A stretch of DNA of 64,000 bases from Escherichia phage vB_EcoS-26175I, in sequence record NC_133255.1; one strand, given 5' to 3'. Below are positions 34,466 to 63,981 of the stretch, in pieces (within the stretch, counting starts at the first letter, position 1; every line of letters begins with the position of its first letter). The notes below the pieces were generated by a model, which was given only the letters and a program-made list of their open reading frames with translations, ran no database searches and was not told the origin of the DNA. The position numbers were made by a program, and so were the translations under genes.

Positions 34466-34492
34466 TTAGAATGCGTTACAGAGCGTTTTAGA
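34466..34492 (+). repeat. 27-bp direct repeat TTAGAATGCGTTACAGAGCGTTTTAGA (left copy)
   Basis: Identical 27-mer at 37806-37832; partial inverted copy near 34962 and partial direct copy near 38912. Confidence 0.9.
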
Positions 34493-34537
34493 CCCTGTTA
34501 ATAACTTATACAAAAAGCAAAAATGAAATTTAATGAG

Positions 34538-34546
34538 TTATCCACT
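34538..34546 (+). promoter_or_regulatory. DnaA-box-like 9-mer TTATCCACT (8/9)
   Basis: One mismatch to TTATCCACA. Confidence 0.4.
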
Positions 34547-34821
34547 TGATTTTTCAAAAAAGTATTTTCTGCTATTATTTTTCATTGACAAATAAGTTTA
34601 GACGTGCATTGATTGGTTAGCAGACTAACAATCGCTAGGATGATAATCACGCTGGTGGATTGTAACAGCTGAAACAGTTAGCAGACTATTAATACTCTAG
34701 AAACCTGTTAGCCAACTAACTATTTCATATTATATAATATACATATAAATTAATAAGAAATAATAACTATAAGAAACTATCAGCTAAGTGAGAACCACTA
34801 TCATTTAGGTTATTCACAAAG

Positions 34822-34830
34822 TTATCCACA
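34822..34830 (+). promoter_or_regulatory. DnaA box TTATCCACA
   Basis: Perfect match to the E. coli DnaA box consensus. Confidence 0.6.
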
Positions 34831-34870
34831 GCACAAAATAACTTGACGCAATAGGCGACGTTTTGGCGAC

Positions 34871-34879
34871 TTATCCACA
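34871..34879 (+). promoter_or_regulatory. DnaA box TTATCCACA
   Basis: Perfect consensus match, 40 bp from the previous box. Confidence 0.6.
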
Positions 34880-34899
34880 GACTTATATACAGGTTATCC

Positions 34900-34919
34900 T
34901 ACTGTATAAATATACAGGG
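34900..34919. promoter_or_regulatory. LexA (SOS) box-like palindrome TACTGTATAAATATACAGGG
   Basis: CTGT-N8-ACAG palindrome, core CTGTATAAATATACAG identical to right-hand copy at 37865-37880. Confidence 0.5.
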
Positions 34920-35166
34920 TAAATAGGTAGCAGTAACAACCGCAATCAAATTTAAGCGGCCTAGAACGCATTCTAAGCGATTTTCTCACTGCTACCCTTA
35001 TTATAATAAAGCCTTGTGTACGCTTACAGAGAGCTAGAAATAGAAAACGCGCGGTTATCATAAAAACAGGCAGTAGGCAAGGAATAAAAAACCTTTTCTT
35101 TTTTCTTGCCCCTAGCGAACAATTATCTATATCATTCACTCACCGATTAACGAGGGAGACAAAGAA

Positions 35167-36168
35167 ATGTCTACTGTAAGAATTGCAGTACCAGCAAACG
35201 CCACTATTATTAAGGGTAGTTTGCGCAACCTGCTAGACGGATCAAGTCCAGCAAGCCTACAACATACGGCGGCAATGGTTGAAAAGATTCACGATGATAT
35301 TTTAGATAATAATGATACTCATTATTGTTTAAGTGATTTCACACAACTACTAGACCCTACCCGCGTTCTAGTGCTTTACAACCGTGACTATCACATCATG
35401 CGAAATCAGCGGGGAAGCGATATTGATTTTATCATTGTAGGTCACGACGAAAAAAGCTATATTGCCCGTGGTTACAATGTACAAGAAAAGGAAATGGTTT
35501 TCGCTACTCGCGTAAATGGTATTAATTCCAGCGATGTAGAAGATTTACTATCTAGTATTTGGGGCGAATTGACAAGCGCCATTAAACGTGCTGATAGTGA
35601 CGCAATCGAAACAACTGGCGTATTGTGTTTTGAACGCGCTAGCGGTAACATGTTGATCCCTAACGATTATTTAGAGTATGGGAATGAATCAAACGTTGCA
35701 AACGCTGGATTTACACTTTTACCGCTTGACAATGTAACAAAACAGGCTGTAAGATCTAACACTCAAACTTCAAGCGCAAATGCGCAAACTACTGAAAATA
35801 AAGGAAATATTATGTCTAAAGTATCTTCTATCGTTGCTGCTAACAAATCTGCTGTTGTAAACGCTGCTAAACTGGAAGCGGGTAAAATTGCACTGACTCA
35901 AATCACAAAAGTAGCGGCGAAAAAAGCACCGTTTATGATTAAAGGGTATATTGATACGCCGATTGGTCGTGTAGTGATCGCTAACCTGCTGAGTGTAGCG
36001 GTTGACCAGTACGCCCCGACTAATGCGAAAGCGAAAGCGGTAGCAGGCGCGGCAATGGAAGCAGCAATGCTGGAAATGGTGCAGAGTTTCAATATTGCTG
36101 AAATGATCGATGAAATGGTAAAAGGCATTGACATTTCTACTTTTACCACTAACACCGAAAGCGAGTAA
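35167..36168 (+). CDS. hypothetical two-domain protein (first gene of plus-strand operon)
   Basis: 333-aa ORF, GGGAG RBS; N-terminal ~200 aa domain, Thr/Ser/Gln linker, Ala/Lys-rich C-terminal domain; no motif I recognise. Confidence 0.6.
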   Translation: MSTVRIAVPANATIIKGSLRNLLDGSSPASLQHTAAMVEKIHDDILDNNDTHYCLSDFTQLLDPTRVLVLYNRDYHIMRNQRGSDIDFIIVGHDEKSYIARGYNVQEKEMVFATRVNGINSSDVEDLLSSIWGELTSAIKRADSDAIETTGVLCFERASGNMLIPNDYLEYGNESNVANAGFTLLPLDNVTKQAVRSNTQTSSANAQTTENKGNIMSKVSSIVAANKSAVVNAAKLEAGKIALTQITKVAAKKAPFMIKGYIDTPIGRVVIANLLSVAVDQYAPTNAKAKAVAGAAMEAAMLEMVQSFNIAEMIDEMVKGIDISTFTTNTESE

Positions 36169-36194
36169 TAAATAGTCTAATGTAAAGTTTTGTA

Positions 36195-36223
36195 AAGGTC
36201 GCCCTAATCGGCGGCCTTTTTTG
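36195..36223 (+). terminator. putative rho-independent terminator/attenuator after first operon gene
   Basis: GC-rich hairpin followed by TTTTTT, then a TATAAT hexamer. Confidence 0.4.
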
Positions 36224-36287
36224 TTATAATGCCTTTACACCGAAACGGTGGACTGAAAATTTTCCCTAATTTCTAGGAGGCGTTAAA

Positions 36288-36437
36288 ATGGTTATTTTTC
36301 GATCTATTCTGGCTAGTATCTTGGGCGCTATTTTATCCTTGTTTGTAATAGCTTTCGGCGTTCACGTGGTTATTATTGGAGCAGGTATCGCGGGGTTTTC
36401 TTACTTGTTAGGCTGTATGACTGGTAAAGGGGAATAA
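36288..36437 (+). CDS. small membrane protein (49 aa)
   Basis: ATG with AGGAGG RBS; hydrophobic throughout (ILASILGAILSLFVIAFGVHVVIIGAGIAGF); below ORF-track size cutoff. Confidence 0.5.
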   Translation: MVIFRSILASILGAILSLFVIAFGVHVVIIGAGIAGFSYLLGCMTGKGE

Positions 36438-36439
36438 AA

Positions 36440-36652
36440 ATGTTAAAGAATGTTTCCCTTGCCCGTTCCAAAGGTTTTAAGCTGGTGGATGTTAACACGT
36501 TCGAGCGTCCAGATTGTAAAATCGAATATGTAGCACGCAACAAAAACGCTTTCCGTGTTACAGAAAAGAAATTTGACAAGCGCGGCAATTTGGTAGCCGA
36601 AACGGTCAAACACTTTGCCACCTTTTACGCTGCATTTCGTGGGGTATTATAA
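36440..36652 (+). CDS. hypothetical protein
   Basis: 70-aa ORF, basic. Confidence 0.45.
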   Translation: MLKNVSLARSKGFKLVDVNTFERPDCKIEYVARNKNAFRVTEKKFDKRGNLVAETVKHFATFYAAFRGVL

Positions 36653-36759
36653 TGGAAAGGGCAATTGTTAAAATGTTAACTTTTGTTTGTGGCGTGTCTA
36701 GTGCTACTCTGTTGATCACGCTAGTGATTATGATTATCCGTGACGCGAGGATCTTTTAA
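36652..36759 (+). CDS. small membrane protein (35 aa)
   Basis: Start overlaps upstream stop; single TM segment. Confidence 0.35.
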   Translation: MERAIVKMLTFVCGVSSATLLITLVIMIIRDARIF

Positions 36760-37103
36760 TGGTAATTTATGAGGGCAATCGTTTTGTTACTAATTGCCGT
36801 CCGGCATTATTAGCAAACTATTTAAATCAGCTTTCACCAGTTTATAAAGGCGTAGTTAATATCTATGAGGGCAAAGCACATTATAAGATTAATGCCATTG
36901 TTGCCCGTGAACTAGCGTTTCAATTTTTAACTTTCGGGTCTTGTGACGTTCAGGTTATGGGGGAAGCGTTAATAGCAGAAAATGAAAATGAATTTATCGA
37001 CATTTTCCGCAAAGTATATACAGAGCGCCTGATTATGAAAGGCGCGTATATTCAATCAACCGCTGAAAGTATCGAAACAGCGTTTCGAAAGGTGGCGCAA
37101 TGA
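36759..37103 (+). CDS. hypothetical protein
   Basis: 114-aa ORF; ATG overlaps previous stop. Confidence 0.5.
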   Translation: MVIYEGNRFVTNCRPALLANYLNQLSPVYKGVVNIYEGKAHYKINAIVARELAFQFLTFGSCDVQVMGEALIAENENEFIDIFRKVYTERLIMKGAYIQSTAESIETAFRKVAQ

Positions 37104-37285
37104 CTAGAAATGAAGCTGTTAAAGCTATGTTAGAAGGTAAAAAAGTAACTCATCGTTATTTTTCCATGCATGAATATTTATTCATGAAATATGAAGTGAT
37201 CACCACGGAGGATGGTTATAAATTTAATCATGAATTTTATAGCCGTGAAATGTTTAATGATGGCTGGCAGCTTTATTATGAATAG
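37100..37285 (+). CDS. hypothetical protein
   Basis: 61-aa ORF; ATGA overlap with upstream gene. Confidence 0.45.
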   Translation: MTRNEAVKAMLEGKKVTHRYFSMHEYLFMKYEVITTEDGYKFNHEFYSREMFNDGWQLYYE

Positions 37286-37415
37286 CTGGTGGCGTAAAAC
37301 GCAAAGTCACAAATCTAATAATACCGCTGGGAATGTTTCCCAGCGTTTACGATTTGGTAATGGCTTTACAATGATATTGATAATCATTCTCATTCTAGGA
37401 GCGATGGCGTTATGA
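37277..37415 (+). CDS. small membrane protein (46 aa)
   Basis: Internal start of ORF 37212..37415 overlapping upstream stop; C-terminal TM segment FTMILIIILILGAMAL. Confidence 0.35.
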
Positions 37416-37507
37416 GACTATATATTTTCGTGGGTAATATTAAGCCTGCTAATGATCCCAACGGTGGCGACAATATCCGCCGCTATTTTCAACAATACAT
37501 CTATTAA
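37412..37507 (+). CDS. small hypothetical protein (31 aa)
   Basis: ATGA start/stop overlap with upstream ORF; AGGAG 10 nt upstream. Confidence 0.3.
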   Translation: MRLYIFVGNIKPANDPNGGDNIRRYFQQYIY

Positions 37508-37522
37508 TAACGGGGCGTTACT

Positions 37523-37717
37523 ATGAGTGATAAAATTGTTATTCGTAAAACTAGTGTTACCGTGGATACATTCTATGTAGAAGATACAAAAGAAAACCGC
37601 GCAATTTGTGAGAATCAAGAGTATGACAAACTTATATATGATGAGTATGGTTACTACACTAATCTAGTAGATTCCTACGGTGAAAGCGTAGAGTTCTCCC
37701 ATCAAATACCGGACTAA
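37523..37717 (+). CDS. hypothetical acidic protein (last gene of plus-strand operon)
   Basis: 64-aa ORF followed by hairpin terminator. Confidence 0.45.
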   Translation: MSDKIVIRKTSVTVDTFYVEDTKENRAICENQEYDKLIYDEYGYYTNLVDSYGESVEFSHQIPD

Positions 37718-37723
37718 TAATAA

Positions 37724-37752
37724 CGGGGCGCAACTATCGGCCCCGCCTTTTC
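37724..37752 (+). terminator. rho-independent terminator ending plus-strand operon
   Basis: Hairpin CGGGGC-N10-GCCCCG followed by CCTTTTCT. Confidence 0.5.
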
Positions 37753-37805
37753 TGGCCTTCCTCAAATTTTCCCTTATTAAAATACCCCCTCCAAAAATAA
37801 ACGCG

Positions 37806-37832
37806 TTAGAATGCGTTACAGAGCGTTTTAGA
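37806..37832 (+). repeat. 27-bp direct repeat TTAGAATGCGTTACAGAGCGTTTTAGA (right copy)
   Basis: Identical to 34466-34492. Confidence 0.9.
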
Positions 37833-37862
37833 GCTATATTAGAGTTATTCACCACGCAGGAA

Positions 37863-37882
37863 TACTGTATAAATATACAGTA
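37863..37882. promoter_or_regulatory. LexA (SOS) box-like palindrome TACTGTATAAATATACAGTA
   Basis: 19/20 match to TACTGTATATATATACAGTA. Confidence 0.5.
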
Positions 37883-37890
37883 GAATAACC

Positions 37891-37911
37891 TGTTGATAAG
37901 TCTGTTGATAA
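37891..37911 (-). promoter_or_regulatory. two tandem DnaA-box-like 9-mers TGTTGATAA
   Basis: Each is one mismatch from TGTGGATAA (reverse complement of TTATCCACA); copies at 37891-37899 and 37903-37911. Confidence 0.4.
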
Positions 37912-37963
37912 CGCCTCAAAATCGCTAGGATTTTGTCAAGTCAAATCGTGCTGTTAATAAACC

Positions 37964-37972
37964 TGTGGATAA
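37964..37972 (-). promoter_or_regulatory. DnaA box (TGTGGATAA, reverse orientation)
   Basis: Perfect reverse-complement match to TTATCCACA. Confidence 0.6.
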
Positions 37973-38015
37973 CTTAAATAACAGTGTTTCTCACTTCCCT
38001 TTCTAAATGCAAATC

Positions 38016-38150
38016 ATTCTCATTATGCGACTCATTCGCATTCAACTCTGTAAATGATAACCATTCTCATTCCGCTTTCTAAACGCGAATCATTCTCATT
38101 CGCATTCAACTTCTCAAATGCGAATCAATCTCATTATCATTCGCATTTCG
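38016..38150. repeat. degenerate tandem repeats built from CATTCTCATT and CGCATTCAAC units
   Basis: At least five copies of (A)ATCATTCTCATT.CGC and three of TCGCATTCAAC(T)TCT within 135 bp. Confidence 0.7.
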
Positions 38151-38179
38151 GCAGGCAGGGCATTTTCATTTTTGCCCTG

Positions 38180-38790
38180 CGCTTTTGTGCAAATCCGACA
38201 TTTGCCCCCACGGATTACGTGCCAGCGTGCATGTGCGAATCCGACAATTTTTGGTAGTGTGCAAATCCGATGGGAAATATTTTTTATATGTGCGAATCCG
38301 ACAATGAATTTTCCTAAAAACTCCAGCAATCAACAACTGCGATGCAATCCAGCTGGATTTACTAGAATATGTGCAGATCCGACAAGTGTTAAGGTGTGCG
38401 AATCCGACAAGATTTTTGTGACTTCGATGAGAGGGTGTGTGATTGTGTGAGTTTGGGGAGAAGTGCGAATCCGATGAGATTTTGGGAGGAACTACGGAAG
38501 GAGCAGCGGTGTTGGTGCTTCAGCACCGGTTTGCTGCGTTTTTGGGGATAATGTGGGATGTTTTGGCTAGAATTGAGATTAGGGGAGATAAAGCGAAATT
38601 TTATTAGCAAAATGGGGCAGAATAGCTTGACAAGTGAAAATTCCTGTGGCTCTAAAAACTCAGGCAAATATGGGCCTTCGGCCCGAAATAATGCTGCTAT
38701 TTTCAGTGTTCCTAAAAACTTTGGAGACTCCTATCAATGTGCAAATCCGACCATAAATTTCTAGAAACATAATGTGCAAATCCGATAGCA
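38180..38790. repeat. iteron-like array: at least 9 copies of GTGCRAATCCGAYR with irregular spacing
   Basis: Copies near 38190, 38233, 38270, 38291, 38372, 38397, 38463, 38740, 38773, each followed by AT-rich tails. Confidence 0.8.
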
Positions 38791-38819
38791 ATTTCCAGAA
38801 ATGTGTTTTGGAAAAATGT

Positions 38820-38900
38820 CTTCTAGAAATAACCGCCCTCCCTATAACCGCCCTCTATAGGAAACCGCCCTAGGATATGTAACGTTGGAGAGAAACTGCC
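38820..38900. repeat. short direct repeats AACCGCCCT x3 plus AACTGCCCT
   Basis: aaccgccctccctataaccgccctctataggaaaccgccct...aactgccct. Confidence 0.7.
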
Positions 38901-39323
38901 CTAGAATGCGTGAGTTTTCCTAGAAACTTAGGAGTCTACTAGAAAGTGTTGTGCCATCCTAGCAGATGAGCGGCAACCGGTGTATCATCTTGAACGTTAA
39001 TTTATCTATTCAACAGTATTAGTTTTTATATAAGTATAAGATCCCCCAGGGTTCTCATATAGAGCTTTGCCCCCCGTCAGAAGGTCTCGTGATGTTTCTA
39101 GTAATCTTTACTAAATTACCTGTTGACTTGTCCTGTCGCTCCGTAACCTACGCTACAAGTCAGTAATTTAAGATTCCTGAACCACCACACCTTCTGTGTG
39201 GCAACTCTAAATGGTTAATTTTATTAACTCATAGAGTTATGATAACATACATTTAGTTATCTGTCAACGAGAGTTTGTATTTGAGTCTCGGTACAGGTAT
39301 TGTGCACCGAGACATGCAGGATC

Positions 39324-55293: not shown

Positions 55294-55689
55294 TTAGTCG
55301 TAGCACCACCATAACCCACGCTTACGCAGATCATGATCGCGATTATAGTCGTAATTTTCTGGATCTTTCATCACACGATGAAGTTCGCGACGGTTTCCCT
55401 GACGAACCATTTTGTTAGAATGCCACTTAACATTCCTACTAACAGAATCCCACCAGTGCCCATCTTTCTTCTCGTTACGGATGATATTTTCCTGAATCTC
55501 CTTCTCAATTTCATCCCAAGTTTTAGCCCATGCTTCATTGGATCGAACTTGATAATACTTCCACTGCTTACCATCCCTATCCGTGTAGATATACGGAATA
55601 CGGATATTAGTGCTATGAAAATTATAAGTAGAACGATGTGCATCACGCCAGTGACGATCACCAGATTGTTTACGATATGTACGGCTCAT
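55294..55689 (-). CDS. hypothetical basic Trp-rich protein
   Basis: 131-aa ORF. Confidence 0.5.
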   Translation of the reverse strand: MSRTYRKQSGDRHWRDAHRSTYNFHSTNIRIPYIYTDRDGKQWKYYQVRSNEAWAKTWDEIEKEIQENIIRNEKKDGHWWDSVSRNVKWHSNKMVRQGNRRELHRVMKDPENYDYNRDHDLRKRGLWWCYD

Positions 55690-55997: not shown

Positions 55998-56297
55998 TTA
56001 GATAATTTCGACAATATCCTGAGTTACAAAACCGTCGAATTCATCAGAGATACCACCTGTAAAGGTGATGCCCATAATCATTGCATCCATCTTTTTAATC
56101 TCCGAGATTTTCATACCTGCTTTACTATTCTTATAGTATTTGCGAGGATTCCCACACATCCAACAAGAACAGATGCAAGGAGTGGTAGTGATAATGCCTA
56201 ACCGCTTAGGACTTTCTTCATGTGGGAAGACTGTCCAATACTTTTTGCGATTGTTTTTCACACGTTGCCGGTGATGGCGTCTTAATGCTCGATCCAC
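55998..56297 (-). CDS. hypothetical protein with Cys cluster
   Basis: 99-aa ORF; CICSCWMCGNPRKYY. Confidence 0.45.
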   Translation of the reverse strand: MDRALRRHHRQRVKNNRKKYWTVFPHEESPKRLGIITTTPCICSCWMCGNPRKYYKNSKAGMKISEIKKMDAMIMGITFTGGISDEFDGFVTQDIVEII

Positions 56298-56378
56298 ACA
56301 TTTCTCCTAAAACTTGGGAGATAAATGGAGTTTGCTCGACTACCTTGCGTAGCTGGGAGAAATCGTATCCAAATCCCA

Positions 56379-56747
56379 TTATATCGCCTGAGTAAATGTA
56401 CGACTAATAACGTCGTTCTGTTGTTCACGCGTCAATGCGTTAAATCGAACAGCATAGCCAGAGACACGGATGGTCAACTGAGGATATTTTTCAGGATGTT
56501 TCTGTGCATCCAAAAGCTGATCACGGCTTAACACATTGACATTTAGGTGCTGACCACCCTCGACTTGAGGAACCACTTCCACATCTACAATGCGAAAGGC
56601 CTCAGGGTCAAAGTGAGGTGTGATACCTTCTAGATCTTCGACTAGAACTTTCTGTTTAAGTTCACCATCTTTAGAATATAGTTGAATGATCTGATTGTTA
56701 TGAACAATGTTAATTACGCCAGACTTAAGACTTTGATATGCTTTCAT
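56379..56747 (-). CDS. autonomous glycyl radical cofactor GrcA/YfiD-like protein
   Basis: 122-aa ORF; C-terminal [12 protein letters not shown]...[35 protein letters not shown] matches my recollection of E. coli GrcA including the RVSGY glycyl-radical motif. Confidence 0.8.
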
Positions 56748-57111
56748 TAGATCTCCCTGATGTTAGAATTTGGCTCAGCTTTTTGTTAACCCAGAAGCAA
56801 GATAAAAACTGGAAGGCAGGCTTGCTTATTAAGTGAATACCCGATAATCGCTCGTAGTCCGGCTTGTGGATTGATAGTCCCATTCAGTTTAATAAGCACA
56901 GGAGCTTTGATTTTAACGTTGCGATCTCCTGGTCTGTTGCAACTACGTGATTGCTCACGCTAAGACAATGGCTATCTAAAGTCCTAGCTTCTACATTTAT
57001 ACTCCTGGATAGCATGGAGTTGCAGTCTACTTCCTGCTGTCACGCCCGGCCATTTATAGAATGTGGACTCTCTTCTCAGCAGGATCTGGTACAAAGACCT
57101 GATCCTCTGTT

Positions 57112-57187
57112 TGGTAGTTAGTAGTGGATTTGAACCACTGTAGTCGCCCCGTATGAAGGAGGTGCATAACCACTCTGCCAACTAACT
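57112..57187 (-). tRNA. tRNA with anticodon CAT (Met or Ile2)
   Basis: Hand fold: acceptor AGTTAGT/ACTAACT, T-arm AGTGG-TTCAAAT-CCACT, anticodon loop TTCATAC, CCA encoded. Confidence 0.7.
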
Positions 57188-57193
57188 ATAATT

Positions 57194-57269
57194 TGGTACT
57201 CCGAGTTGGAATCGAACCAACGTTTGACGATTATCGGTCGCCCGTTCTAACCTATTGAACTATCAGAGC
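57194..57269 (-). tRNA. tRNA-Ile (anticodon GAT)
   Basis: Hand fold: acceptor GCTCTGA/TCGGAGT, T-arm GTTGG-TTCGATT-CCAAC, anticodon loop CCGATAA, CCA encoded. Confidence 0.7.
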
Positions 57270-57270
57270 A

Positions 57271-57537
57271 TTAATACGGGTACTTGGCTCTTTTCACTGC
57301 TCTTTCAAATTCTCTAATATGTTCTCTAGAGAGTGCAGATAAATCAAAGGCACAAGATACTAAACGTTCTTTCTTGAAGAATCCTAAATAAAAGGAGGCT
57401 GTTATACATTGCGTAGGTCTAGCAAAGATCTTGTAAACTCCGGATTTAGGGATTCCCATACCCTTTTGATAATTACTGCCATTTGTAGGCCCAGCCATTA
57501 AGTTTTTGGGTACTAAGTCAAAACGTATTTTAATCAT
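57271..57537 (-). CDS. hypothetical protein
   Basis: 88-aa ORF between tRNA genes. Confidence 0.45.
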   Translation of the reverse strand: MIKIRFDLVPKNLMAGPTNGSNYQKGMGIPKSGVYKIFARPTQCITASFYLGFFKKERLVSCAFDLSALSREHIREFERAVKRAKYPY

Positions 57538-57827
57538 CGCATAATATCCAAATAAGATTCATAACGATAGTCTGTTAGGCCTTCCTCCGTCACCGTAACC
57601 TTCACTGGAGGTACCCGACGAACTAAACCATGAATCATCTTGTACTGAATAGACTTAGATGGTTCGTGATCTTTTGGAAATACTTGTTTAACCGTTACTA
57701 CTTTGAAGCCTTCACGAGGTGTTAGCACAACAACTTGATCACCTTCTTTTATTTTCCAAGACTCAGGAAATTCGTAAGTATAGCGTTGACCACCAGTTTG
57801 GAACACGACAGAAAGATAACGTTTCAT
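57534..57827 (-). CDS. hypothetical protein
   Basis: 97-aa ORF downstream of early promoter. Confidence 0.5.
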   Translation of the reverse strand: MKRYLSVVFQTGGQRYTYEFPESWKIKEGDQVVVLTPREGFKVVTVKQVFPKDHEPSKSIQYKMIHGLVRRVPPVKVTVTEEGLTDYRYESYLDIMR

Positions 57828-57857
57828 TTGGTTTCCCTCTCATTAATTTATATAAAT

Positions 57858-57886
57858 ATTATAACAAGAAATAAGAGAGAAGGCAA
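57858..57886 (-). promoter_or_regulatory. sigma70-type early promoter (TTGCCT-17-TATAAT)
   Basis: Minus strand -35 TTGCCT, 17-bp spacer, -10 TATAAT. Confidence 0.7.
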
Positions 57887-57905
57887 ATGAATTTTTTAAA
57901 TTTGA

Positions 57906-57977
57906 TGCTCCCACCAGGAATCGAACCCAGTTCAGATGCTTACAAGGCAACTGCATCGCCAGCAATGCTTTAGGAGC
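57906..57977 (-). tRNA. tRNA-Thr (anticodon TGT)
   Basis: Hand fold: acceptor GCTCCTA/TGGGAGC, T-arm CTGGG-TTCGATT-CCTGG, anticodon loop CTTGTAA; CCA not encoded. Confidence 0.7.
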
Positions 57978-58143
57978 ATTAACCCGTTATTTCAACGGGA
58001 TTTCTTTTTCATATACAGGAGACTTATCAGACATTACTGTCCTAGCCAACTGCTGTAGAAATTCGAAGGAGAGTTTTAAACGTTCTTCACCCAACTCAAC
58101 CTCAACGCACTTCATTTGTTTATCAACCTTTAGCTTTAGATTA

Positions 58144-58365
58144 TCAGCCATCTTCGGATTCTCTTTGCTCAGCTATTGCTAGCCAGTTTGGTAAAAGAAA
58201 CTTCGTACGAAATTCTTCATATGTTTCTTCTGGATGAAAGCTATAACCTTGCTTTTCATCATTTAATAAAACCGAACCGTCTTCCTGTTCATAAGCTCGG
58301 TATGTTTCACCAATAATTAAAACTCGTCTATTAGGATTTTTATTACGAAACTCAAAAACGTGCAT
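58144..58365 (-). CDS. hypothetical protein
   Basis: 73-aa ORF. Confidence 0.45.
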   Translation of the reverse strand: MHVFEFRNKNPNRRVLIIGETYRAYEQEDGSVLLNDEKQGYSFHPEETYEEFRTKFLLPNWLAIAEQRESEDG

Positions 58366-58379
58366 AACGTTTCCTTAAA

Positions 58380-58455
58380 TTGGTGCGGGATACGAGAGTC
58401 GAACTCGTGTCTACTGGTTGGAAGCCAGTTATTCTAGCCACTGAACTAATCACGC
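58380..58455 (-). tRNA. tRNA-Gly (anticodon TCC)
   Basis: Hand fold: T-arm ACGAG-TTCGACT-CTCGT, anticodon stem ACTGG/CCAGT with loop CTTCCAA, CCA encoded; one acceptor mismatch. Confidence 0.7.
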
Positions 58456-58461
58456 ATGAAT

Positions 58462-58537
58462 TGGCTGGAGAAGGAGGAATCGAACCTACCATTAACGGAG
58501 TCAAAGGCCGTTGTGCTAACCGTTACACTACTCTCCA
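58462..58537 (-). tRNA. tRNA-Gln (anticodon TTG)
   Basis: Hand fold: starts with T1 and G73 discriminator as in E. coli tRNA-Gln; anticodon loop CTTTGAC; CCA encoded. Confidence 0.7.
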
Positions 58538-58543
58538 AGTATT

Positions 58544-58619
58544 TGGCTGGGATGCCACGGATCGAACGTGGAACCTTCGGAGTCAGAGGCCGACGATCTG
58601 CCAATTGATCTACATCCCA
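58544..58619 (-). tRNA. tRNA-Gln (anticodon CTG)
   Basis: Hand fold: acceptor TGGGATG/CATCCCA, T-arm CCACG-TTCGATC-CGTGG, anticodon loop CTCTGAC, CCA encoded. Confidence 0.75.
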
Positions 58620-58627
58620 ATAATTTT

Positions 58628-58828
58628 TTATTCTACAGGAACCGTGGCGATTGGATCAGGTTCTTCTAGACGTTTACCATTATGATCAACACGAATAATA
58701 CCACAACCCTCACAGATTACAACAGCACCATAGCCTTCTTTAACTTCGGCTTCTGTAATCAGCCCAGAAAGATCACCAGTATCTTTTCCCCACATATCAA
58801 TGGAACATTCTTTGCAGAAATCAGCCAT
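58628..58828 (-). CDS. small zinc-ribbon-like protein
   Basis: 66-aa ORF; CKEC...CEGC cysteine pairs. Confidence 0.45.
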   Translation of the reverse strand: MADFCKECSIDMWGKDTGDLSGLITEAEVKEGYGAVVICEGCGIIRVDHNGKRLEEPDPIATVPVE

Positions 58829-58852
58829 ATTTTATTTCCCGTTTAAGTTAGT

Positions 58853-58927
58853 TGGTGCATCCTCAGGGAATCGAACCCCGATCGTAAAGTTCGTAGCTTT
58901 ACATTCTTTCCATTGAAATAAGGACGC
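58853..58927 (-). tRNA. tRNA-Arg (anticodon ACG)
   Basis: Hand fold: acceptor GCGTCCT/AGGATGC, T-arm CGGGG-TTCGATT-CCCTG, anticodon stem TAAAG/CTTTA loop CTACGAA, CCA encoded. Confidence 0.7.
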
Positions 58928-58933
58928 AATATT

Positions 58934-59010
58934 TGGGGTGACTAGTGGAATTCGAATCCACATAGGCCTGATTCACAATCAGGATCATTAACCAATTATG
59001 ATATAGCCAC
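58934..59010 (-). tRNA. tRNA-His (anticodon GTG)
   Basis: Hand fold: acceptor GTGGCTA/TAGTCAC, discriminator C73, anticodon stem CCTGA/TCAGG loop TTGTGAA, T-arm GTGGA-TTCGAAT-TCCAC, CCA encoded. Confidence 0.8.
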
Positions 59011-59191
59011 AATTGAAATCTCTAGTTATCCCTTTCGTAGGGGCTAAAGGGCGATACCCATCCTAAAGACTTCAATTGTGGCGGCTCTCCGAAACTCATC
59101 ACACTAACAACTAGTTGATTACTTCTGGATTCTCGCCCAGAAAATTCTCTAGAAAGGTGCACCGTTACTCTTTGAGCCATTGAATATCAAG

Positions 59192-59300
59192 AAGTAGAAG
59201 GACTCGAACCTTCACGAGATAGACCATTTATCTCAGCCTCGTTTTCGGGTATCTTATGAGGAGTGGATGTTCCCCTTACGCCCTTTAGGAAGCCCCGTCT
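59192..59300 (-). ncRNA. tRNA-like element, unresolved (~107 nt)
   Basis: Contains a canonical T-arm (GAAGG-TTCGAGT-CCTTC) and a Leu/Tyr-type D-arm (GCCGGAATCGGTAGACGG) closed by a 6-bp terminal stem GAAGTA/TACTTC, but I could not place a canonical anticodon arm. Confidence 0.4.
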
Positions 59301-59305
59301 ACCGA

Positions 59306-59395
59306 TTCCGGCATACTTCAAGATTTGGCAGAAGATAATGGAGTCGAACCATCACCGTATCACTACAGCGGGCCGGTTTTCAAGACCGGTTACGT
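59306..59395 (-). tRNA. tRNA-Ser (anticodon TGA), long variable arm
   Basis: Hand fold: acceptor AGAAGAT/ATCTTCT, anticodon stem CCGGT/ACCGG loop CTTGAAA, 19-nt variable arm, T-arm GATGG-TTCGACT-CCATT, CCA encoded. Confidence 0.75.
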
Positions 59396-59413
59396 ACCAC
59401 TACGTCCTATCTT

Positions 59414-59770
59414 CTATTGTTCGTATATTACAAAGTTTACAGATTCAGAGTAATAACCATTACTAGAACCATGCCATTTAACGGTTACACAGCCTTTAGC
59501 TGTGGCAAACTTATACCATGTATGGGTTACTGAATCCCAATCTTCTGTAGCGTGTGTGATTACTTCCTCTGCTTCTATGATTGGATAACCTAAAAGGTCA
59601 TGTAAATCACCAATAATATCATCTATATGAACATCTTCACAGCAGTCCTGCTCATGATAAAACTTATAGTTCTTACCATCAGTACAAATGAAGATAAGAG
59701 TATCTTGGTCTTGGCATACATTAGTAAAAATTTTGCCAAGCATTTCATTATAGATTGTCACTTCTGACAT
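59414..59770 (-). CDS. hypothetical acidic protein
   Basis: 118-aa ORF. Confidence 0.5.
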   Translation of the reverse strand: MSEVTIYNEMLGKIFTNVCQDQDTLIFICTDGKNYKFYHEQDCCEDVHIDDIIGDLHDLLGYPIIEAEEVITHATEDWDSVTHTWYKFATAKGCVTVKWHGSSNGYYSESVNFVIYEQ

Positions 59771-59792
59771 ATTAGTTTCCTAGTAAGTTGTT

Positions 59793-59882
59793 TGGCGGAA
59801 GAAGAGAGATTCGAACTCTCAAGCCGTTTTACCAGTCAGCCACTTTCCAAGCGGTTTTCGTCACCTATCGATTTGCTCTTCC
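59793..59882 (-). tRNA. tRNA-Ser (anticodon GGA), long variable arm
   Basis: Hand fold: acceptor GGAAGAG/TTCTTCC and 3' end GAGAGTTCGAATCTCTCTTCTTCCGCCA closely resemble E. coli tRNA-Ser; anticodon loop TTGGAAA. Confidence 0.65.
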
Positions 59883-60056
59883 GTAGATCTCAGGATTAAA
59901 TCATAAACTTCATTAGCGGATACTGGAAGTATGAGATTATACATCTTTTGGTCATACCTCTGACCATACTCTATAAACACATACTCTTTAGTTAATGTAT
60001 TAACAGCTAACCAGATATCAGTTATAGGAGTTTTCATCATGAGTTAATCCAATGTT

Positions 60057-60137
60057 TGGTAGGGATGGAGGGACTCGAACCCACACCCGAAGACTAGAAC
60101 CTAAATCTAGCGCGTCTGCCAATTTCGCCACATCCCC
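60057..60137 (-). tRNA. tRNA-Leu (anticodon TAG), long variable arm
   Basis: Hand fold: Leu-type D-arm GCGAAATTGGCAGACGC, anticodon stem CTAGA/TCTAG loop TTTAGGT, T-arm TTCGAGT, CCA encoded. Confidence 0.75.
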
Positions 60138-60144
60138 ATTTTAT

Positions 60145-60363
60145 TTAGTTAGAAATAAATAATAATCCCGCAACAATAGAACCTACGCCACTGAATACCA
60201 TTATCAGCATAGCTTCTAAGCTGATAAAGCGGACAGTATATGGAGCGCCCCAAGAATAATCAGTAAAGAAAGTTTTCTTTTCTTTAGCTAAATCTTTAAT
60301 AGTTCTAAAATAGATAGCTAGTGCTAAAGCTGCAAGAACTACAGAGGCTGCTAAGAATACCAT
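60145..60363 (-). CDS. small membrane protein
   Basis: 72-aa ORF with two hydrophobic helices. Confidence 0.45.
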   Translation of the reverse strand: MVFLAASVVLAALALAIYFRTIKDLAKEKKTFFTDYSWGAPYTVRFISLEAMLIMVFSGVGSIVAGLLFISN

Positions 60364-60382
60364 ATTATTTCCTTAATTTGTT

Positions 60383-60458
60383 TGGTGGAGTCACTCAGAA
60401 TTGAACTGAGTTCCACTGCTTGCAAGGCAGTAAGTTTAACCAAATAACCTATGACCCC
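60383..60458 (-). tRNA. tRNA-Ala (anticodon TGC)
   Basis: Hand fold: acceptor GGGGTCA/TGACTCC with G3:U70, anticodon stem ACTGC/GCAGT loop CTTGCAA, T-arm CTCAG-TTCAATT-CTGAG, CCA encoded. Confidence 0.8.
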
Positions 60459-60463
60459 GAATT

Positions 60464-60542
60464 TGGTGGAGAATAAGAGATTCGAACTCTTCTGATATCC
60501 TCGGTGCAAGCGAGGTGTCCACTCCAAGCAGACCCATTCCCC
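60464..60542 (-). tRNA. tRNA with anticodon TGC (Ala-like, G3:U70) and atypical 7-nt variable region
   Basis: Hand fold: acceptor GGGGAAT/ATTCTCC, D-stem GTCT/GGAC, anticodon stem CCTCG/CGAGG loop CTTGCAC, T-arm AAGAG-TTCGAAT-CTCTT, CCA encoded. Confidence 0.6.
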
Positions 60543-60551
60543 AAAATTTAT

Positions 60552-60815
60552 TTATTCTCTATACATATCGAGAACAGTTGCTACAATCTGAGCTTCTAGC
60601 CTAGCAATATCTTTATTCACTATATCAGATTCTACTACTAAGTGATTATATATTGCTTCAGTTTTAGCAAGATCTATATCAGATAGTTTATTAAGACTAT
60701 TATAATACTTAGCATTATTGCAACGTTTCTTCATATCGGAAACTCGTTTATGGAGGGTTCTTTGTTGATAACGTTGCGACATTAGTTTCTTAGCCATATC
60801 TTTAAGATCAAACAT
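60552..60815 (-). CDS. hypothetical basic protein
   Basis: 87-aa ORF; 230-nt untranslated leader between its start and promoter at 61081-61109. Confidence 0.45.
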   Translation of the reverse strand: MFDLKDMAKKLMSQRYQQRTLHKRVSDMKKRCNNAKYYNSLNKLSDIDLAKTEAIYNHLVVESDIVNKDIARLEAQIVATVLDMYRE

Positions 60816-61080
60816 AGATATTCCTTCTAGTTTACTAAGGCTATTAGCTCGGTGTGCGTATTACCCTCAGACATTAGCCAGTAGAGGATAACCGCTCTTC
60901 ACAAACCCGATACACTATTCAGTTGCCGCTGAATCTAGTGGACTAATCTAGAACTTATTGCAAAGTATCCCCTGCCATTAGGGGTCTAATTGCAATTGTG
61001 CTTTTTGGCAGCCAGTCCTAGGTCGAGCTAATACCTTAGTGAACTTTGATGAGGATTTCTCCTCATCAATTTATATAAAT

Positions 61081-61109
61081 ATTATAACAAGAAATTAAGC
61101 ATCAAGCAA
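61081..61109 (-). promoter_or_regulatory. sigma70-type early promoter (TTGCTT-17-TATAAT)
   Basis: Minus strand -35 TTGCTT, 17-bp spacer, -10 TATAAT, conserved ATTTATATAAATTGATGAGGAG downstream. Confidence 0.75.
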
Positions 61110-61461
61110 GTACATTTTTAGCGATTTCTTGTAGTTCCTTAACGTCGCTAACGAAAAGGTAATCAGAGCTTCCAGAGTGCATACTCTGCATAACCACACC
61201 ATCCTCTGGTGCATCTTCCTTCAAAGTAAGTCCTAACCAGAACTTGGCAAAACCAGGTGTTACCTCACCTTGACTTGCCTTGAACACATCGCCTTCTGTG
61301 ATCTCTTGACCAGTAGAGAGTCCCATGTATGGTACGTTCAGATCAATATCTTTGTAGAACTCAGCTAGATCTTGCTCGAAATCCCAACCTTTAGAGATAG
61401 CGAACTCCATTGTTACATGACCGAAATAGCCTTGAACCTTGCTTGATAATTGCATTTGCAA
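61102..61461 (-). CDS. hypothetical protein
   Basis: 119-aa ORF. Confidence 0.5.
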   Translation of the reverse strand: MQMQLSSKVQGYFGHVTMEFAISKGWDFEQDLAEFYKDIDLNVPYMGLSTGQEITEGDVFKASQGEVTPGFAKFWLGLTLKEDAPEDGVVMQSMHSGSSDYLFVSDVKELQEIAKNVLA

Positions 61462-61480
61462 TTCCTTATTTTGAGTTAAT

Positions 61481-61554
61481 TGGTACTCGGTGATAGAATC
61501 GAACTATCGCAACCGCCGTGTAAAGACGGGGTTCTCCCATTAAACTAACCGAGT
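61481..61554 (-). tRNA. tRNA-Val (anticodon TAC)
   Basis: Hand fold: acceptor ACTCGGT/ACCGAGT, anticodon stem CCGTC/GGCGG loop TTTACAC, T-arm GATAG-TTCGATT-CTATC, CCA encoded. Confidence 0.75.
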
Positions 61555-61558
61555 AATT

Positions 61559-61636
61559 TGGTGGATTGCCTGGGATTCGAACCCAGAACTGACGGATTAA
61601 AGGTCCGCTACTCTTATCCAGTTGAGCTAGCAATCC
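61559..61636 (-). tRNA. tRNA-Lys (anticodon TTT)
   Basis: Hand fold: acceptor GGATTGC/GCAATCC, D-stem GCTC/GAGT, anticodon stem GCGGA/TCCGT loop CCTTTAA, T-arm CTGGG-TTCGAAT-CCCAG, CCA encoded. Confidence 0.7.
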
Positions 61637-62100
61637 AATTTTTCTACTAATAATTTAAAAGCATCTAGTACAGGTACTTCAAACCATTCTCCAGATACTC
61701 TATAATCTTTAAGAAGATTATGTAATTCTTTCTCTGTACGTCTTTTATCAGACGAAAATCTGAAATGGTATAGCTTGTAGTCTCTATTAGGTGAATAAGT
61801 TTGATAACTTGCTAACCTCTCATTCACATCTATAGTCATACCTATTTTATACATGCCTGGCCATGCTGGATTACCAATTACATATACAAAACCTTCCGTT
61901 ATAGGTATTTTATGCTCCCTTTTATACTTTAAGAGATTTAAGGCTGCCATTCGATAACAGAATCTAAACTCTGAAGTTTTTAACTTACCTTCTTTACCCG
62001 AAATTTCGTTATATTTGCTCATATAAGCTCTTATGAGCTTATCATCTATAATGAAGTTATCAGGAAGGTTTAAGGCAGCTAAAACTTTATTAATTAGCAT
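61627..62100 (-). CDS. GIY-YIG-type nuclease (T5orf172-like; putative homing endonuclease)
   Basis: 157-aa ORF; GFVYVIGNPAWPGMYKIGMT resembles the GIY..YIG motif; embedded in tRNA island. Confidence 0.6.
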   Translation of the reverse strand: MLINKVLAALNLPDNFIIDDKLIRAYMSKYNEISGKEGKLKTSEFRFCYRMAALNLLKYKREHKIPITEGFVYVIGNPAWPGMYKIGMTIDVNERLASYQTYSPNRDYKLYHFRFSSDKRRTEKELHNLLKDYRVSGEWFEVPVLDAFKLLVEKLDC

Positions 62101-62285
62101 AGACTTCCTTAATAGAATAAACTTTTAAGTAAGGGTGATTAATACCAAATTCCGCCATCACTTCGTTTTCATCTTTACCGTAATGGGCTAGTGGATACTT
62201 CTTACGATCTTTGCTAGAACGTAGATCACTTACTTTTAAACGAAATAATTTCATTTCGAAATCCTTCTATTAAATTGGAAGCGGG

Positions 62286-62363
62286 TGCAGGAATCGAACC
62301 TACCTCTTTCTAGCTTATGAGACTAGCGATCTCTACCAGAGATCTAACCCGCAATTGTTTGGT
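62286..62363 (-). tRNA. tRNA with anticodon CAT (Met/fMet or Ile2)
   Basis: Hand fold: D-stem GATC/GATC, anticodon stem CTAGT/GCTAG loop CTCATAA, T-arm GTAGG-TTCGATT-CCTGC, unpaired 1:72, CCA encoded. Confidence 0.7.
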
Positions 62364-62369
62364 CTCCGT

Positions 62370-62447
62370 GGGAGGATTTGAACCCCCGACCCTACCGCCC
62401 CAAACGGAACGCTCTGGCCAAACTGAGCTACACGGAGAATATTCTTT
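62370..62447 (-). tRNA. tRNA-Pro (anticodon TGG)
   Basis: Hand fold: C1-G72 start as in E. coli tRNA-Pro, D-stem GCTC/GAGC, anticodon loop TTTGGGG, T-arm GGGGG-TTCAAAT-CCTCC, CCA encoded. Confidence 0.75.
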
Positions 62448-62469
62448 GTTAACTCACTTTATAAAATAT

Positions 62470-62498
62470 ATTATACAGATATTTAAGCATAATAGCAA
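62470..62498 (-). promoter_or_regulatory. sigma70-type early promoter (TTGCTA-17-TATAAT) driving the tRNA-Pro/tRNA-Met unit
   Basis: Minus strand -35 TTGCTA, 17-bp spacer, -10 TATAAT. Confidence 0.75.
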
Positions 62499-62749
62499 AT
62501 GAGTTTTTAATAAATTTACTTATTGCGTAGGCCACCTCACGCTTCAAACGCTCTGCTGACAAAGAAGTTTGCGAGACTTCTCTTAAATGCCAGAATAGAC
62601 CCGCCGATCTATCGGAACCTACTCAATAAGTAAACTTTCGTTTACCTACACCTACCTGGTCGGGAGGATTTTCAGCGACTAGAACCGGCCGGAAACTCAT
62701 CGCCTTGTTTATCTAGGAGTCCGTTCTCTAGGAAGCAGAAACCTAAATT

Positions 62750-62823
62750 TGGTGCGGTCGGAGGGAATCGAACCCTCAACTTCTGGTTGGCAACCAAAAA
62801 TTATACCTTTTAACTACGAACGC
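62750..62823 (-). tRNA. tRNA-Gly (anticodon GCC)
   Basis: Hand fold: T-arm GAGGG-TTCGATT-CCCTC, anticodon stem TTTGG/CCAGA loop TTGCCAA, CCA encoded; one acceptor mismatch. Confidence 0.7.
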
Positions 62824-62961
62824 ATAATAAGTCAATCTAGGCAGGACTTGAACCTGCTATCACTTGTGCGGATTTACGAGAACCATTCTTTCACTCGAAT
62901 CGAACGAGCTTCTACCCTCGGCAAGCTGGTGTCCCCTCTCCACCACGCTAGAATGTTTAAT
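62824..62961 (-). ncRNA. two tRNA-like elements, unresolved (138 nt)
   Basis: Two T-arm signatures (GCAGG-TTCAAGT-CCTGC and GCTCG-TTCGATT-CGAGT) between tRNA-Gly and tRNA-Lys; no canonical 7-bp acceptor stem found for either; terminal complementarity CTAGATT/CTAGAAT spans the whole element. Confidence 0.35.
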
Positions 62962-63039
62962 TGGTACACCTGCTGAGATTCAAACTCAGGATCTTCCGAT
63001 TAAGAGTCGGTTGCTTTAAGTCAACTAAGCTACAGATGC
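62962..63039 (-). tRNA. tRNA-Lys (anticodon CTT)
   Basis: Hand fold: acceptor GCATCTG/CAGGTGT, D-stem GCTT/AAGC, anticodon loop CTCTTAA, T-arm CTGAG-TTTGAAT-CTCAG, CCA encoded. Confidence 0.65.
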
Positions 63040-63579
63040 ATTTATATCTTTATAGGACTTACCAGCCAGTCTTGTATAGCGTTTTCGCAAACCATTATCT
63101 GACATGCCCAATTCTCTAGAAGCTCTAGACCATGAGTAATTTTTAACCCAGTACTCTATTTGTTCTACAGTAATTTCTTGTGGATTTTGACAGTGCTGTT
63201 TGCAGTAACTAGCTCTTTTAGCTATTTCTTTGTTGCAAATAGGACAGAAATTTTTATCTGAACTTAATCCACGTTCTTCTATAGTTTTGAGAATATGATC
63301 AGCTTTACTTCGTACAATCAGATTTTCAAGAGAGAAATTTAGTTTATTTGTATCATCATGATCTACTTCTAAGTCAGAACTCAAAGATGGTAGATCTTTG
63401 TATACTCTCGCTAATACTCTGTGTAATAGAAGATGTTTTGATTTTCCATTATGTTGAACAGTAAAGAAAGGATACCCAGAAGTATTAATCTGTATTGAAA
63501 GTATACGATTAACTTTAGTACTAAATACTTCCCCAGTCTCACTTATTAAGTATTCTGGATATTCGGGTATTTCTTTCAT
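63025..63579 (-). CDS. HNH homing endonuclease
   Basis: 184-aa ORF; HRVLARVY...EVDHDDTNKLNFSLENL HNH motif, C-terminal CPICN..C..HC zinc motif and HTH-like tail; 3' end overlaps tRNA-Lys. Confidence 0.75.
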   Translation of the reverse strand: MKEIPEYPEYLISETGEVFSTKVNRILSIQINTSGYPFFTVQHNGKSKHLLLHRVLARVYKDLPSLSSDLEVDHDDTNKLNFSLENLIVRSKADHILKTIEERGLSSDKNFCPICNKEIAKRASYCKQHCQNPQEITVEQIEYWVKNYSWSRASRELGMSDNGLRKRYTRLAGKSYKDINASVA

Positions 63580-63596
63580 TACTGTTCCTTATAATT

Positions 63597-63673
63597 TGGC
63601 GCGACCGATGGGATTCGAACCCACATTCTCTCCCGTGACAGGGGAGTACCATTACCAAGCCAGCCCCGATCGC
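63597..63673 (-). tRNA. tRNA-Asp (anticodon GTC)
   Basis: Hand fold: acceptor GCGATCG/CGGTCGC, anticodon stem CTCCC/GGGAG loop CTGTCAC, T-arm GTGGG-TTCGAAT-CCCAT, CCA encoded. Confidence 0.7.
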
Positions 63674-63682
63674 ATAATTTGT

Positions 63683-63868
63683 TTACTCAGCTTTGAGTTT
63701 TTCGATAGCTTCCTCAACCTCTTTTAGAGCTTCACGACGCTCTACTTGACCTTGAAGTTCTTCAAGAAGTTCAGCTTTCAGAGCCTTAATAATATTACCA
63801 CGAACCTTAATATTATTAATCAGATTATCACGATCAGCTTCTAGTCGAGCAATTGCACGAGTTGTCAT
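63683..63868 (-). CDS. small coiled-coil protein
   Basis: 61-aa ORF. Confidence 0.4.
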   Translation of the reverse strand: MTTRAIARLEADRDNLINNIKVRGNIIKALKAELLEELQGQVERREALKEVEEAIEKLKAE

Positions 63869-63895
63869 ATCTATTTCCTCAGTTGTTAGTGAAAT

Positions 63896-63981
63896 TGGCG
63901 GGCCGTGTAGGAGTTGAACCTACTTTATCCTTGCGGATACGGATTAACAGTCCGGCGCTTAAACCGTTCAGCCAACGGCCC
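63896..63981 (-). tRNA. type-II tRNA (long variable arm) with anticodon GTT
   Basis: Hand fold: perfect acceptor GGGCCGT/ACGGCCC, 3-bp D-stem with 10-nt loop, anticodon stem CCGGA/TCCGT loop CTGTTAA, 15-nt variable hairpin ATCC-GCAA-GGAT, T-arm GTAGG-TTCAACT-CCTAC, CCA encoded. Confidence 0.6.

Follow-up and report, generated by a model that had tools for sequence, protein, structure and literature searches.

The gene at positions 56379-56747 (minus strand) of Escherichia phage vB_EcoS-26175I encodes, very probably, the T5-lineage version of the glycyl-radical cofactor GrcA, which by analogy with its characterised relatives would be activated by the host enzyme PflA and would patch damaged host pyruvate formate-lyase (PflB). 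Here "the window" means the whole stretch of DNA that was analysed, 64,000 nucleotides of record NC_133255.1. The ORF is intact and expressed-looking, and its product is a strongly constrained protein of 122 aa.

An earlier note on this DNA, prepared from the letters and a list of ORFs, had placed a GrcA/YfiD-like protein in this interval without giving a strand, and it turned out that the interval is exactly one ORF, read on the minus strand from an ATG start to a TAA stop. It corresponds to QDK00279.1 and is the orthologue of T5.056 in reference T5. Reading the sequence upstream, we found a Shine-Dalgarno element (GGGAG, 56753-56757, minus) 5 nt from the ATG. The phage origin assumed by the note was borne out, as the window is 100% identical to the Epseptimavirus genomes vB_EcoS-26175III/IV/V (Demerecviridae, Markadamsvirinae, Epseptimavirus), and the same 100% identity was obtained for the 5 kb surrounding the gene. 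The window comes from a T5-like siphovirus; outside this region it holds late structural genes of T5 type, the pre-early genes dmp/A1/A2 and genes of the early class.

The C-terminal glycyl-radical domain (residues 62-122; 56382..56564, minus) is the counterpart of GrcA residues 67-127 and PflB residues 699-759. Gly_radical (PF01228) is the single Pfam domain of the protein (E=4e-18, residues 62-103), and in NCBIfam three GrcA models score best, formate C-acetyltransferase coming next. Among solved structures, HMMER matched phage residues 50-121 to E. coli GrcA/YfiD (6owr; E=2e-29) and the phage protein to PflB residues 698-758 (1h16/1cm5; E=1.6e-26). We aligned the last 61 residues with the E. 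coli K-12 proteins, as the note had proposed for GrcA and the PflB C-terminus, and identity was 80% to GrcA (49/61), 77% to PflB (47/61) and 85% to TdcE (52/61). The similarity to GrcA over the C-terminal 60 residues is therefore real, while "almost identical", as it had been described, mildly overstates 80%.

The RVSGY motif of glycyl-radical proteins (56454..56468, minus) is present and exact. The predicted radical site is G97, encoded by GGC at 56457-56459 (minus), the counterpart of GrcA G102 and PflB G734. The longer sequence RVSGYAV is also exact, at residues 94-100; this peptide is described in PMC10665898 as a substrate of the PFL-activating enzyme (PFL-AE) and as having been crystallised with it (PDB 3CB8). 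When 67 diverse homologues were aligned, G97 and 30 other positions of the C-domain were invariant, and R, V, S, G, Y and A of the motif showed no variation. A similarity confined to low-complexity sequence, or a glycine that is not conserved, had been named as the weak points of the GrcA reading; neither was found, given the PF01228 match and the invariance of G97 in all 67 sequences.

The AlphaFold2 (AF2) model of the phage protein has a mean pLDDT of 77.5, and its C-half is predicted to form a helix, a beta-hairpin bearing the glycine, and a second helix. The best Foldseek matches of the model are the NMR structure of YfiD (E=3.9e-6) and then PFL. GrcA residues 61-127 and PFL 693-759 have the same fold (PMC8683613). 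Strand, Gly loop and C-terminal helix are common to the phage protein and the C-domains of PflB (699-759) and TdcE, but these enzymes are 760 and 764 aa long, with a 10-stranded barrel and the Cys418/Cys419 pair, whereas the 122-aa phage protein has neither barrel nor Cys pair. The formate C-acetyltransferase model TIGR01255 is matched at profile positions 683-743 of 744, with 84 bits against a cut-off of 994 bits. Because of this short length and low score, the labels "pyruvate formate-lyase", "2-ketobutyrate formate-lyase" and "acetyltransferase" are misleading for the gene.

The GrcA/YfiD-like assignment holds for the protein as a whole, as its domain, motif and size are joined by a full-length match to phrog_1209 (E=7e-47; residues 1-122 against positions 1-121 of the profile) and by about 50% identity, over 100% of the query in tblastn, to T4-type genes annotated as vs.6 or GrcA. 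One of these, T4 vs.6, is annotated as "autonomous glycyl radical cofactor GrcA" and encodes Y06I. According to Wagner et al. 2001, as cited in PMC8683613, E. coli YfiD and T4 Y06I are "spare parts" of about 14 kDa, in which the PFL-activating enzyme installs a glycyl radical and which form a complex with O2-cleaved PFL, whereby activity is restored. These two are the only validated spare parts (PMC8683613). GrcA hands the radical of its G102 on to C419 of PflB, and it also rescues full-length PflB carrying G734A in vivo (PMC12338860).

Y06I and the window protein are both stand-alone, two-part products of large virulent coliphages with nearly the same length (120 aa in T4, 122 aa here), both start with MKAYQ and carry RVSGYAV, and they belong to the same PHROG over their full length, with 77% identity in the C-domain. 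They differ in history and setting. At the nucleotide level, the C-domain of the T4 gene is almost a copy of E. coli grcA (176/180 nt), whereas the synonymous sites of the T5-type gene point to ancient divergence; the T4 gene lies in the vs/regB region and the T5-like gene at the end of a tRNA island. In the N-half, the jumbo/T4-type profile (E=4e-6) allows the T4 protein to be recognised as a homologue of bacterial GrcA, which does not hold for the T5-type protein.

E. coli GrcA/YfiD (6OWR; TIGR04365) shares with the phage protein a similar size, the two-part layout and a C-domain of the same fold with 80% identity, but its N-half is only about 20% identical to the T5-type with no match at the profile level, and it is encoded at a host locus regulated by stress and anaerobiosis, whereas the T5-type gene lies in a phage tRNA operon. 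With 118.3 bits the window protein (121.5 for T5.056) stays below the TIGR04365 equivalog cut-off of 170 bits, which E. coli GrcA exceeds with 234. The validated T4 Y06I, at 151.1 bits, falls below it too, so the cut-off is uninformative on function; what it separates is bacterial versions and phage versions, not proteins with and without function. Outside the T5 group, the C-domains nearest to the T5-type are those of jumbo phages (Salmonella SE_PL, Klebsiella K64-1 and Yersinia fHe-Yen9-03; 82-87% identity) and of the Vibrio phages D479 and PVA23 (85% and 80%).

The N-terminal half (residues 1-61; 56565..56747, minus) is probably a divergent, T5-type version of the GrcA N-terminal region. 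Its identity is 20% to GrcA, 28% to T4 Y06I and 31-35% to the jumbo-phage homologues, whose N-halves offer the best likeness, though a weak one: in hhalign, T5-type and jumbo/T4-type N-halves match with E=0.0025 over 24 columns, covering residues 31-54 only. The N-halves of the jumbo and Vibrio phages form a separate, clearly delimited type whose homology to bacterial GrcA is demonstrable, since the jumbo/T4-type profile matches the bacterial N-half over its full length (E=4e-6), while hhalign returned no match between the T5-type and bacterial GrcA N-halves. These comparisons indicate that the T5-type N-half is the most divergent within the GrcA family. With residues 1-60 as the query, phmmer against 1.84 billion representatives found no real relatives, its sole matches being a 46-aa piece of this very protein and a single PPR-repeat protein. 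The latter match is taken as chance, being a sum of weak matches between an alpha-helical repeat and a sequence with predicted beta structure.

In the AF2 model this half has five beta-strands with pLDDT 81-90, and the N-domain model gave no structural match in Foldseek searches of PDB and BFVD. For comparison we also modelled GrcA of Pantoea, in which a similarly beta-rich N-domain came out equally confident and with a like strand order, so the predicted N-domain does not set the phage protein apart. By NMR, residues 1-60 of E. coli YfiD are disordered (PMC8683613). The confident N-domain of the models may thus represent a bound-state fold, or it may reflect over-confidence of the prediction. 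Activation is about four-fold higher when residues 1-60 of GrcA are present, and without them no binding to cleaved PFL can be measured (PMC8683613). Since this PFL-binding half is barely recognisable in the T5-type, recognition of the partner could differ.

To see how widely the gene is distributed, we counted phage records by tblastn at an identity of at least 80%, and the GrcA-like protein was present in 438, an approximate number because a few records are partial genomes. The major capsid protein of the window, used as control, was likewise found in 438 records at this threshold, and from the equal counts the gene appears essentially universal in the T5-like group. In six T5-like orthologues compared by the Nei-Gojobori method, dN/dS is 0.014-0.17 at dS 0.25-0.73; the N-terminal half has values of 0.05-0.20 and the C-terminal half of 0-0.07. 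The gene is intact in 6/6 of them. Its position, RBS and length are conserved. Both halves are under purifying selection, which is strong overall.

Identity at third codon positions is only 46-51% to grcA, pflB and tdcE, and the GC content of the gene (0.41) is close to that of the window (0.40). As third positions are saturated and GC matches the window, the gene is an old phage resident rather than a recent capture from the host, and it has been kept close to the host enzyme sequence by selection. Phages carrying GrcA homologues, jumbo phages included, infect Escherichia, Salmonella, Klebsiella, Shigella, Enterobacter, Aeromonas, Yersinia and Vibrio. The hosts of these carriers are facultative anaerobes with PFL.

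The genomic neighbourhood agrees with the description of the gene as lying just downstream of the tRNA island. ARAGORN placed 21 tRNA genes on the minus strand at 57112-63981. The last of them, tRNA-Ile(GAT) and tRNA-Met(CAT) (57112..57269, minus; ARAGORN and Rfam), lie upstream of the ATG on the same strand, and 364 nt separate it from the end of tRNA-Met. In each T5-like phage that was compared (T5, Shivani, EC105, NBSal003 and KKP 3953), the GrcA-like gene comes after tRNA-Ile and tRNA-Met, in this order. Between tRNA-Met and the coding sequence lies a 364-nt spacer without annotation (56748..57111, minus), which is conserved in about 147 Epseptimavirus records and is lacking in T5/Tequintavirus, where the gap between tRNA-Met and the gene is 13-26 nt (13 nt for T5.056 of reference T5). 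The 40 nt directly before the ATG are kept also in those Tequintavirus genomes without the spacer. Searches of the spacer gave no Rfam family and no excess of folding energy (z=-0.2), which rules it out as an identifiable structured RNA.

Upstream, a consensus scan gave a candidate sigma-70-like promoter, TTGCCT-17-TGnTATAAT (57858..57886, minus), with 10/12 matches and an extended -10 TG. It sits at the position of promoter P11 of T5, which in the T5 annotation precedes T5.058, tRNA-Ile, tRNA-Met, T5.056 and T5.055, followed by a rho-independent terminator. Going by the consensus match and the T5 annotation, this candidate likely starts the transcript that carries the GrcA-like gene, and the spacer probably belongs to the same early transcript. 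Immediately downstream, a 53-aa ORF (56218..56379, minus), an annotated CDS that matches phrog_31464 of "unknown function" (E=1e-32), has its ATG overlapping the stop codon of the GrcA-like gene (TAATG). This overlap is found in KKP 3953 as well, and the two genes may be translationally coupled. No functional partner was recognised among the adjoining small ORFs, all of which belong to PHROGs of "unknown function" or to DUF7295.

On the basis of these results and of the characterised homologues, the protein would act in the following way. The gene would be transcribed early, together with the phage tRNAs, and its product would dock on host PFL whose radical domain has been cleaved by O2 at G734 or is otherwise inactive. 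The host radical-SAM activase PflA would abstract H from G97, and the G97 radical would pass to Cys419 of PflB; the reaction that turns pyruvate into acetyl-CoA plus formate would be restored, and hence ATP formation via acetate kinase. Early on, T5-type phages degrade the DNA of their host. The latter would then be unable to make new PflB or to induce its own grcA, and because neither replacement nor induction is available after this loss, the patch would be useful to the phage: a 14-kDa protein would provide cheap upkeep of the existing 170-kDa enzyme during micro-aerobic or anaerobic infection.

A PflA-like activase was found neither in the 64-kb window nor in T5 at 20-76 kb. Among the 25 matches listed from the phage collection, one is a true PflA and the other PflA homologues are NrdG of large phages, both T4-like and others, and no T5-like phage is among these listed matches. 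As the motif is exact, those regions hold no phage activase and the listed PflA matches include no T5-like phage, we infer that the phage protein presumably relies on host PflA. The note had suggested that the gene supports fermentative metabolism when infection is micro-aerobic or anaerobic. Phage genes of this kind are usually read in that way, and by analogy T5-type phages may benefit in the same manner. This role fits with the carrier hosts having PFL and with reference T5 carrying the anaerobic ribonucleotide reductase NrdD.

As an alternative to PflB as the host partner, the spare part might serve mainly TdcE (2-ketobutyrate/pyruvate formate-lyase), or both PFL-type enzymes. The last 61 residues are nearer to TdcE than to GrcA or PflB; at the nine positions where PflB and TdcE differ, the phage protein agrees with TdcE at six, with PflB at one and with neither at two, and the four internal discriminating positions past the radical glycine are all TdcE-type (A, R, S, A). 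Some automatic annotations of the gene also read "2-ketobutyrate formate-lyase". However, the discriminating swaps are conservative (S/A, K/R, T/S), other phage homologues are mixed, and the segment KHPEKYPQ of the phage protein is GrcA/PflB-like, against EHPEKYPN in TdcE. The PflB/TdcE differences are too few to carry statistical meaning. PflB is an abundant constitutive enzyme and TdcE a conditional one, which counts against TdcE as the target, and we consider this reading quite unlikely. It is related to a broader idea, that the protein goes beyond duplicating host GrcA and is an ancient spare part on its own line of evolution, to which the T5-type N-half and the TdcE-like tail together confer a different specificity or control, which we regard as unlikely; it may take the form of service to TdcE as well as PflB, of docking on intact PFL so as to provide the radical in its place, or of PFL rescue tied to a phage factor, e.g. 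the 53-aa ORF.

Readings that abandon the rescue of PFL-type enzymes fare worse. A decoy or regulator that soaks up PflA or occupies PFL, and so redirects or shuts down the pyruvate/formate metabolism of the host, would likewise need the conserved activase-binding sequence RVSGYAV, and an N-half that is strongly diverged yet strongly constrained leaves room for a different partner. Selection, however, has kept the whole radical domain at dN/dS of about 0-0.07, and this covers the C-terminal helix and the beta-strand, the parts that go into the PFL barrel; the homologous T4 protein restores PFL activity instead of inhibiting it (PMC8683613). With the entire barrel-inserting domain conserved, and not the activase-binding loop alone, and with activity being restored by the homologue of T4, a decoy is very improbable. 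Another glycyl-radical enzyme as the partner, such as phage NrdD, is suggested by the presence of NrdD (T5.099) without an annotated NrdG in reference T5, by several T5-like records that call the gene "ribonucleotide reductase subunit", and by the speculation in PMC8683613 that other glycyl-radical enzymes may have spare parts too. Against it, BLASTP of the phage protein with T5 NrdD gave no similarity (E=15), the best family and structure matches are all PFL-type, and there is no NrdD among the 12 NCBIfam families reported. The sequence essentially refutes this link, to which we give an extremely small chance, and the label most likely stems from the glycine-radical InterPro entry IPR001150, cited in T5 for both T5.056 and NrdD. 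Finally, homology limited to the last 60 or so residues of an enzyme of 85 kDa, with an orphan piece at the N-terminus, might recall a decaying, functionless fragment of a captured host pflB, tdcE or grcA. Such a relic has practically no probability, being refuted by the selection and distribution data: dN/dS of 0.01-0.17 with many synonymous changes, 6/6 intact copies and near-universal presence, besides third positions saturated relative to the host genes, which imply long maintenance.

A GrcA-type spare part for PflB is thus the reading that we prefer, and it places the gene in a family whose mechanism and presence in phages have been established since 2001; the idea of the earlier note is supported and is not new. 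We found no literature linking T5-like phages to glycyl-radical or formate-lyase function, and a search on phage auxiliary metabolic genes and glycyl radicals gave no relevant paper. Database labels are inconsistent. Reference T5 names T5.056 "putative acetyltransferase-related protein" via InterPro IPR001150, QDK00279.1 is a "hypothetical protein" in the identical phage record, and the label "autonomous glycyl radical cofactor" is already carried by an Epseptimavirus gene of 96.7% identity. The practical value of the result lies mainly in mending such labels, including "hypothetical", "acetyltransferase" and "ribonucleotide reductase subunit", in phages that are widely used as candidates for biocontrol or therapy against Salmonella and E. 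coli.

In conclusion, following YfiD and T4 Y06I, the T5-type protein would be a third test case, a natural and strongly diverged one, of the recognition of damaged PFL by the N-half. If the proposed function is true, the gene would be one more well-supported phage auxiliary metabolic gene for anaerobic energy metabolism, and T5-like phages would carry a universal gene that sustains host fermentation under the fluctuating oxygen of the gut.

We compared the segment of vs.6, the T4 gene for Y06I, at 6558-6743 (minus strand) of L002 (phage T4, NC_000866) with 4067-4252 of L004 (E. coli K-12 grcA). The final ~180 coding nucleotides are identical at 176 of 180 positions, and the third positions of the last 61 codons agree in 59 of 61. 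Upstream of this stretch, identity to grcA falls steeply to ~50% or less at the domain boundary, and past the vs.6 stop codon it drops immediately to about 28%, which is the background level. The N-terminal half of vs.6 is phage-type. Its C-terminal stretch looks as if host grcA had recently patched it by gene conversion or recombination. The T5-type gene in the window, in contrast, lacks a host-grcA patch of this kind.

For the N-terminal half, AlphaFold2 confidently predicted a small beta-sheet domain (pLDDT 81-90) in both the window protein and Pantoea GrcA. Residues 1-60 of E. coli YfiD are reported to be disordered by NMR (PMC8683613). Either the N-terminal region would fold on binding cleaved PFL, or the predicted model may be over-confident.

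The same gene carries at least six labels across the GenBank records of T5-like phages, including “hypothetical protein”, “acetyltransferase(-related)”, “pyruvate formate-lyase”, “2-ketobutyrate formate-lyase”, “ribonucleotide reductase subunit” and “autonomous glycyl radical cofactor”. For Citrobacter phage YZU-L1, the ORF call for this gene is cut short at 67 aa.

Upstream of the grcA-like ORF, an unannotated spacer of 364 nt (56748-57111, minus strand) reaches to tRNA-Met. Among the Epseptimavirus records, about 147 have kept it, with a conservation of 88-100%. T5 and other Tequintavirus genomes lack it, and their gap between tRNA-Met and the gene is only 13-26 nt, whereas the corresponding spacer of the T5-like phage KKP 3953 is longer (564 nt). 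The ORFs within the spacer are all short, with 52 and 43 aa, an Rfam search with it gave no match, and a folding-energy test of it revealed no excess. A non-coding transcript from the spacer is conceivable, because several “stable RNAs of unknown function” are annotated in the tRNA region of T5.

Downstream, the ATG of a 53-aa ORF (56218-56379, minus strand; matched to phrog_31464, “unknown function”) overlaps the stop codon of the grcA-like ORF (TAATG), which suggests that the two are translationally coupled. KKP 3953 has an identical overlap, while Tequintavirus genomes carry another gene downstream, T5.055-like, with ~100 aa and 82 nt away. Besides, the 131-aa ORF at 55294-55689 (minus strand) encodes an early protein that is conserved among T5-like phages and has many W, R and H residues. 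It has a full-length match to Pfam DUF7295 (E=2e-59) and a match to phrog_5021.

As for the genome layout, dmp, A1 and A2, which are pre-early genes belonging to the T5 terminal repeat, separate the late structural module from the early region (27600-39000 of the window); the receptor-binding protein gene oad of the late module ends at about 27.6 kb. This indicates that the window spans the collapsed terminal repeat of an assembly that is circularly permuted, and that the four vB_EcoS-26175 records represent one genome opened at differing positions.

Besides T5.056, reference T5 encodes a second glycyl-radical protein, the anaerobic ribonucleotide reductase NrdD (T5.099; 17962-19686 of L012, the T5 record NC_005859, with its surroundings), directly followed by T5.100 (126 aa). 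No NrdG activase is listed in the reference T5 annotation, and a search for PflA-like sequences gave no match either in the window or in T5 20-76 kb. To activate their two glycyl-radical proteins, T5-like phages may rely on activases of the host.
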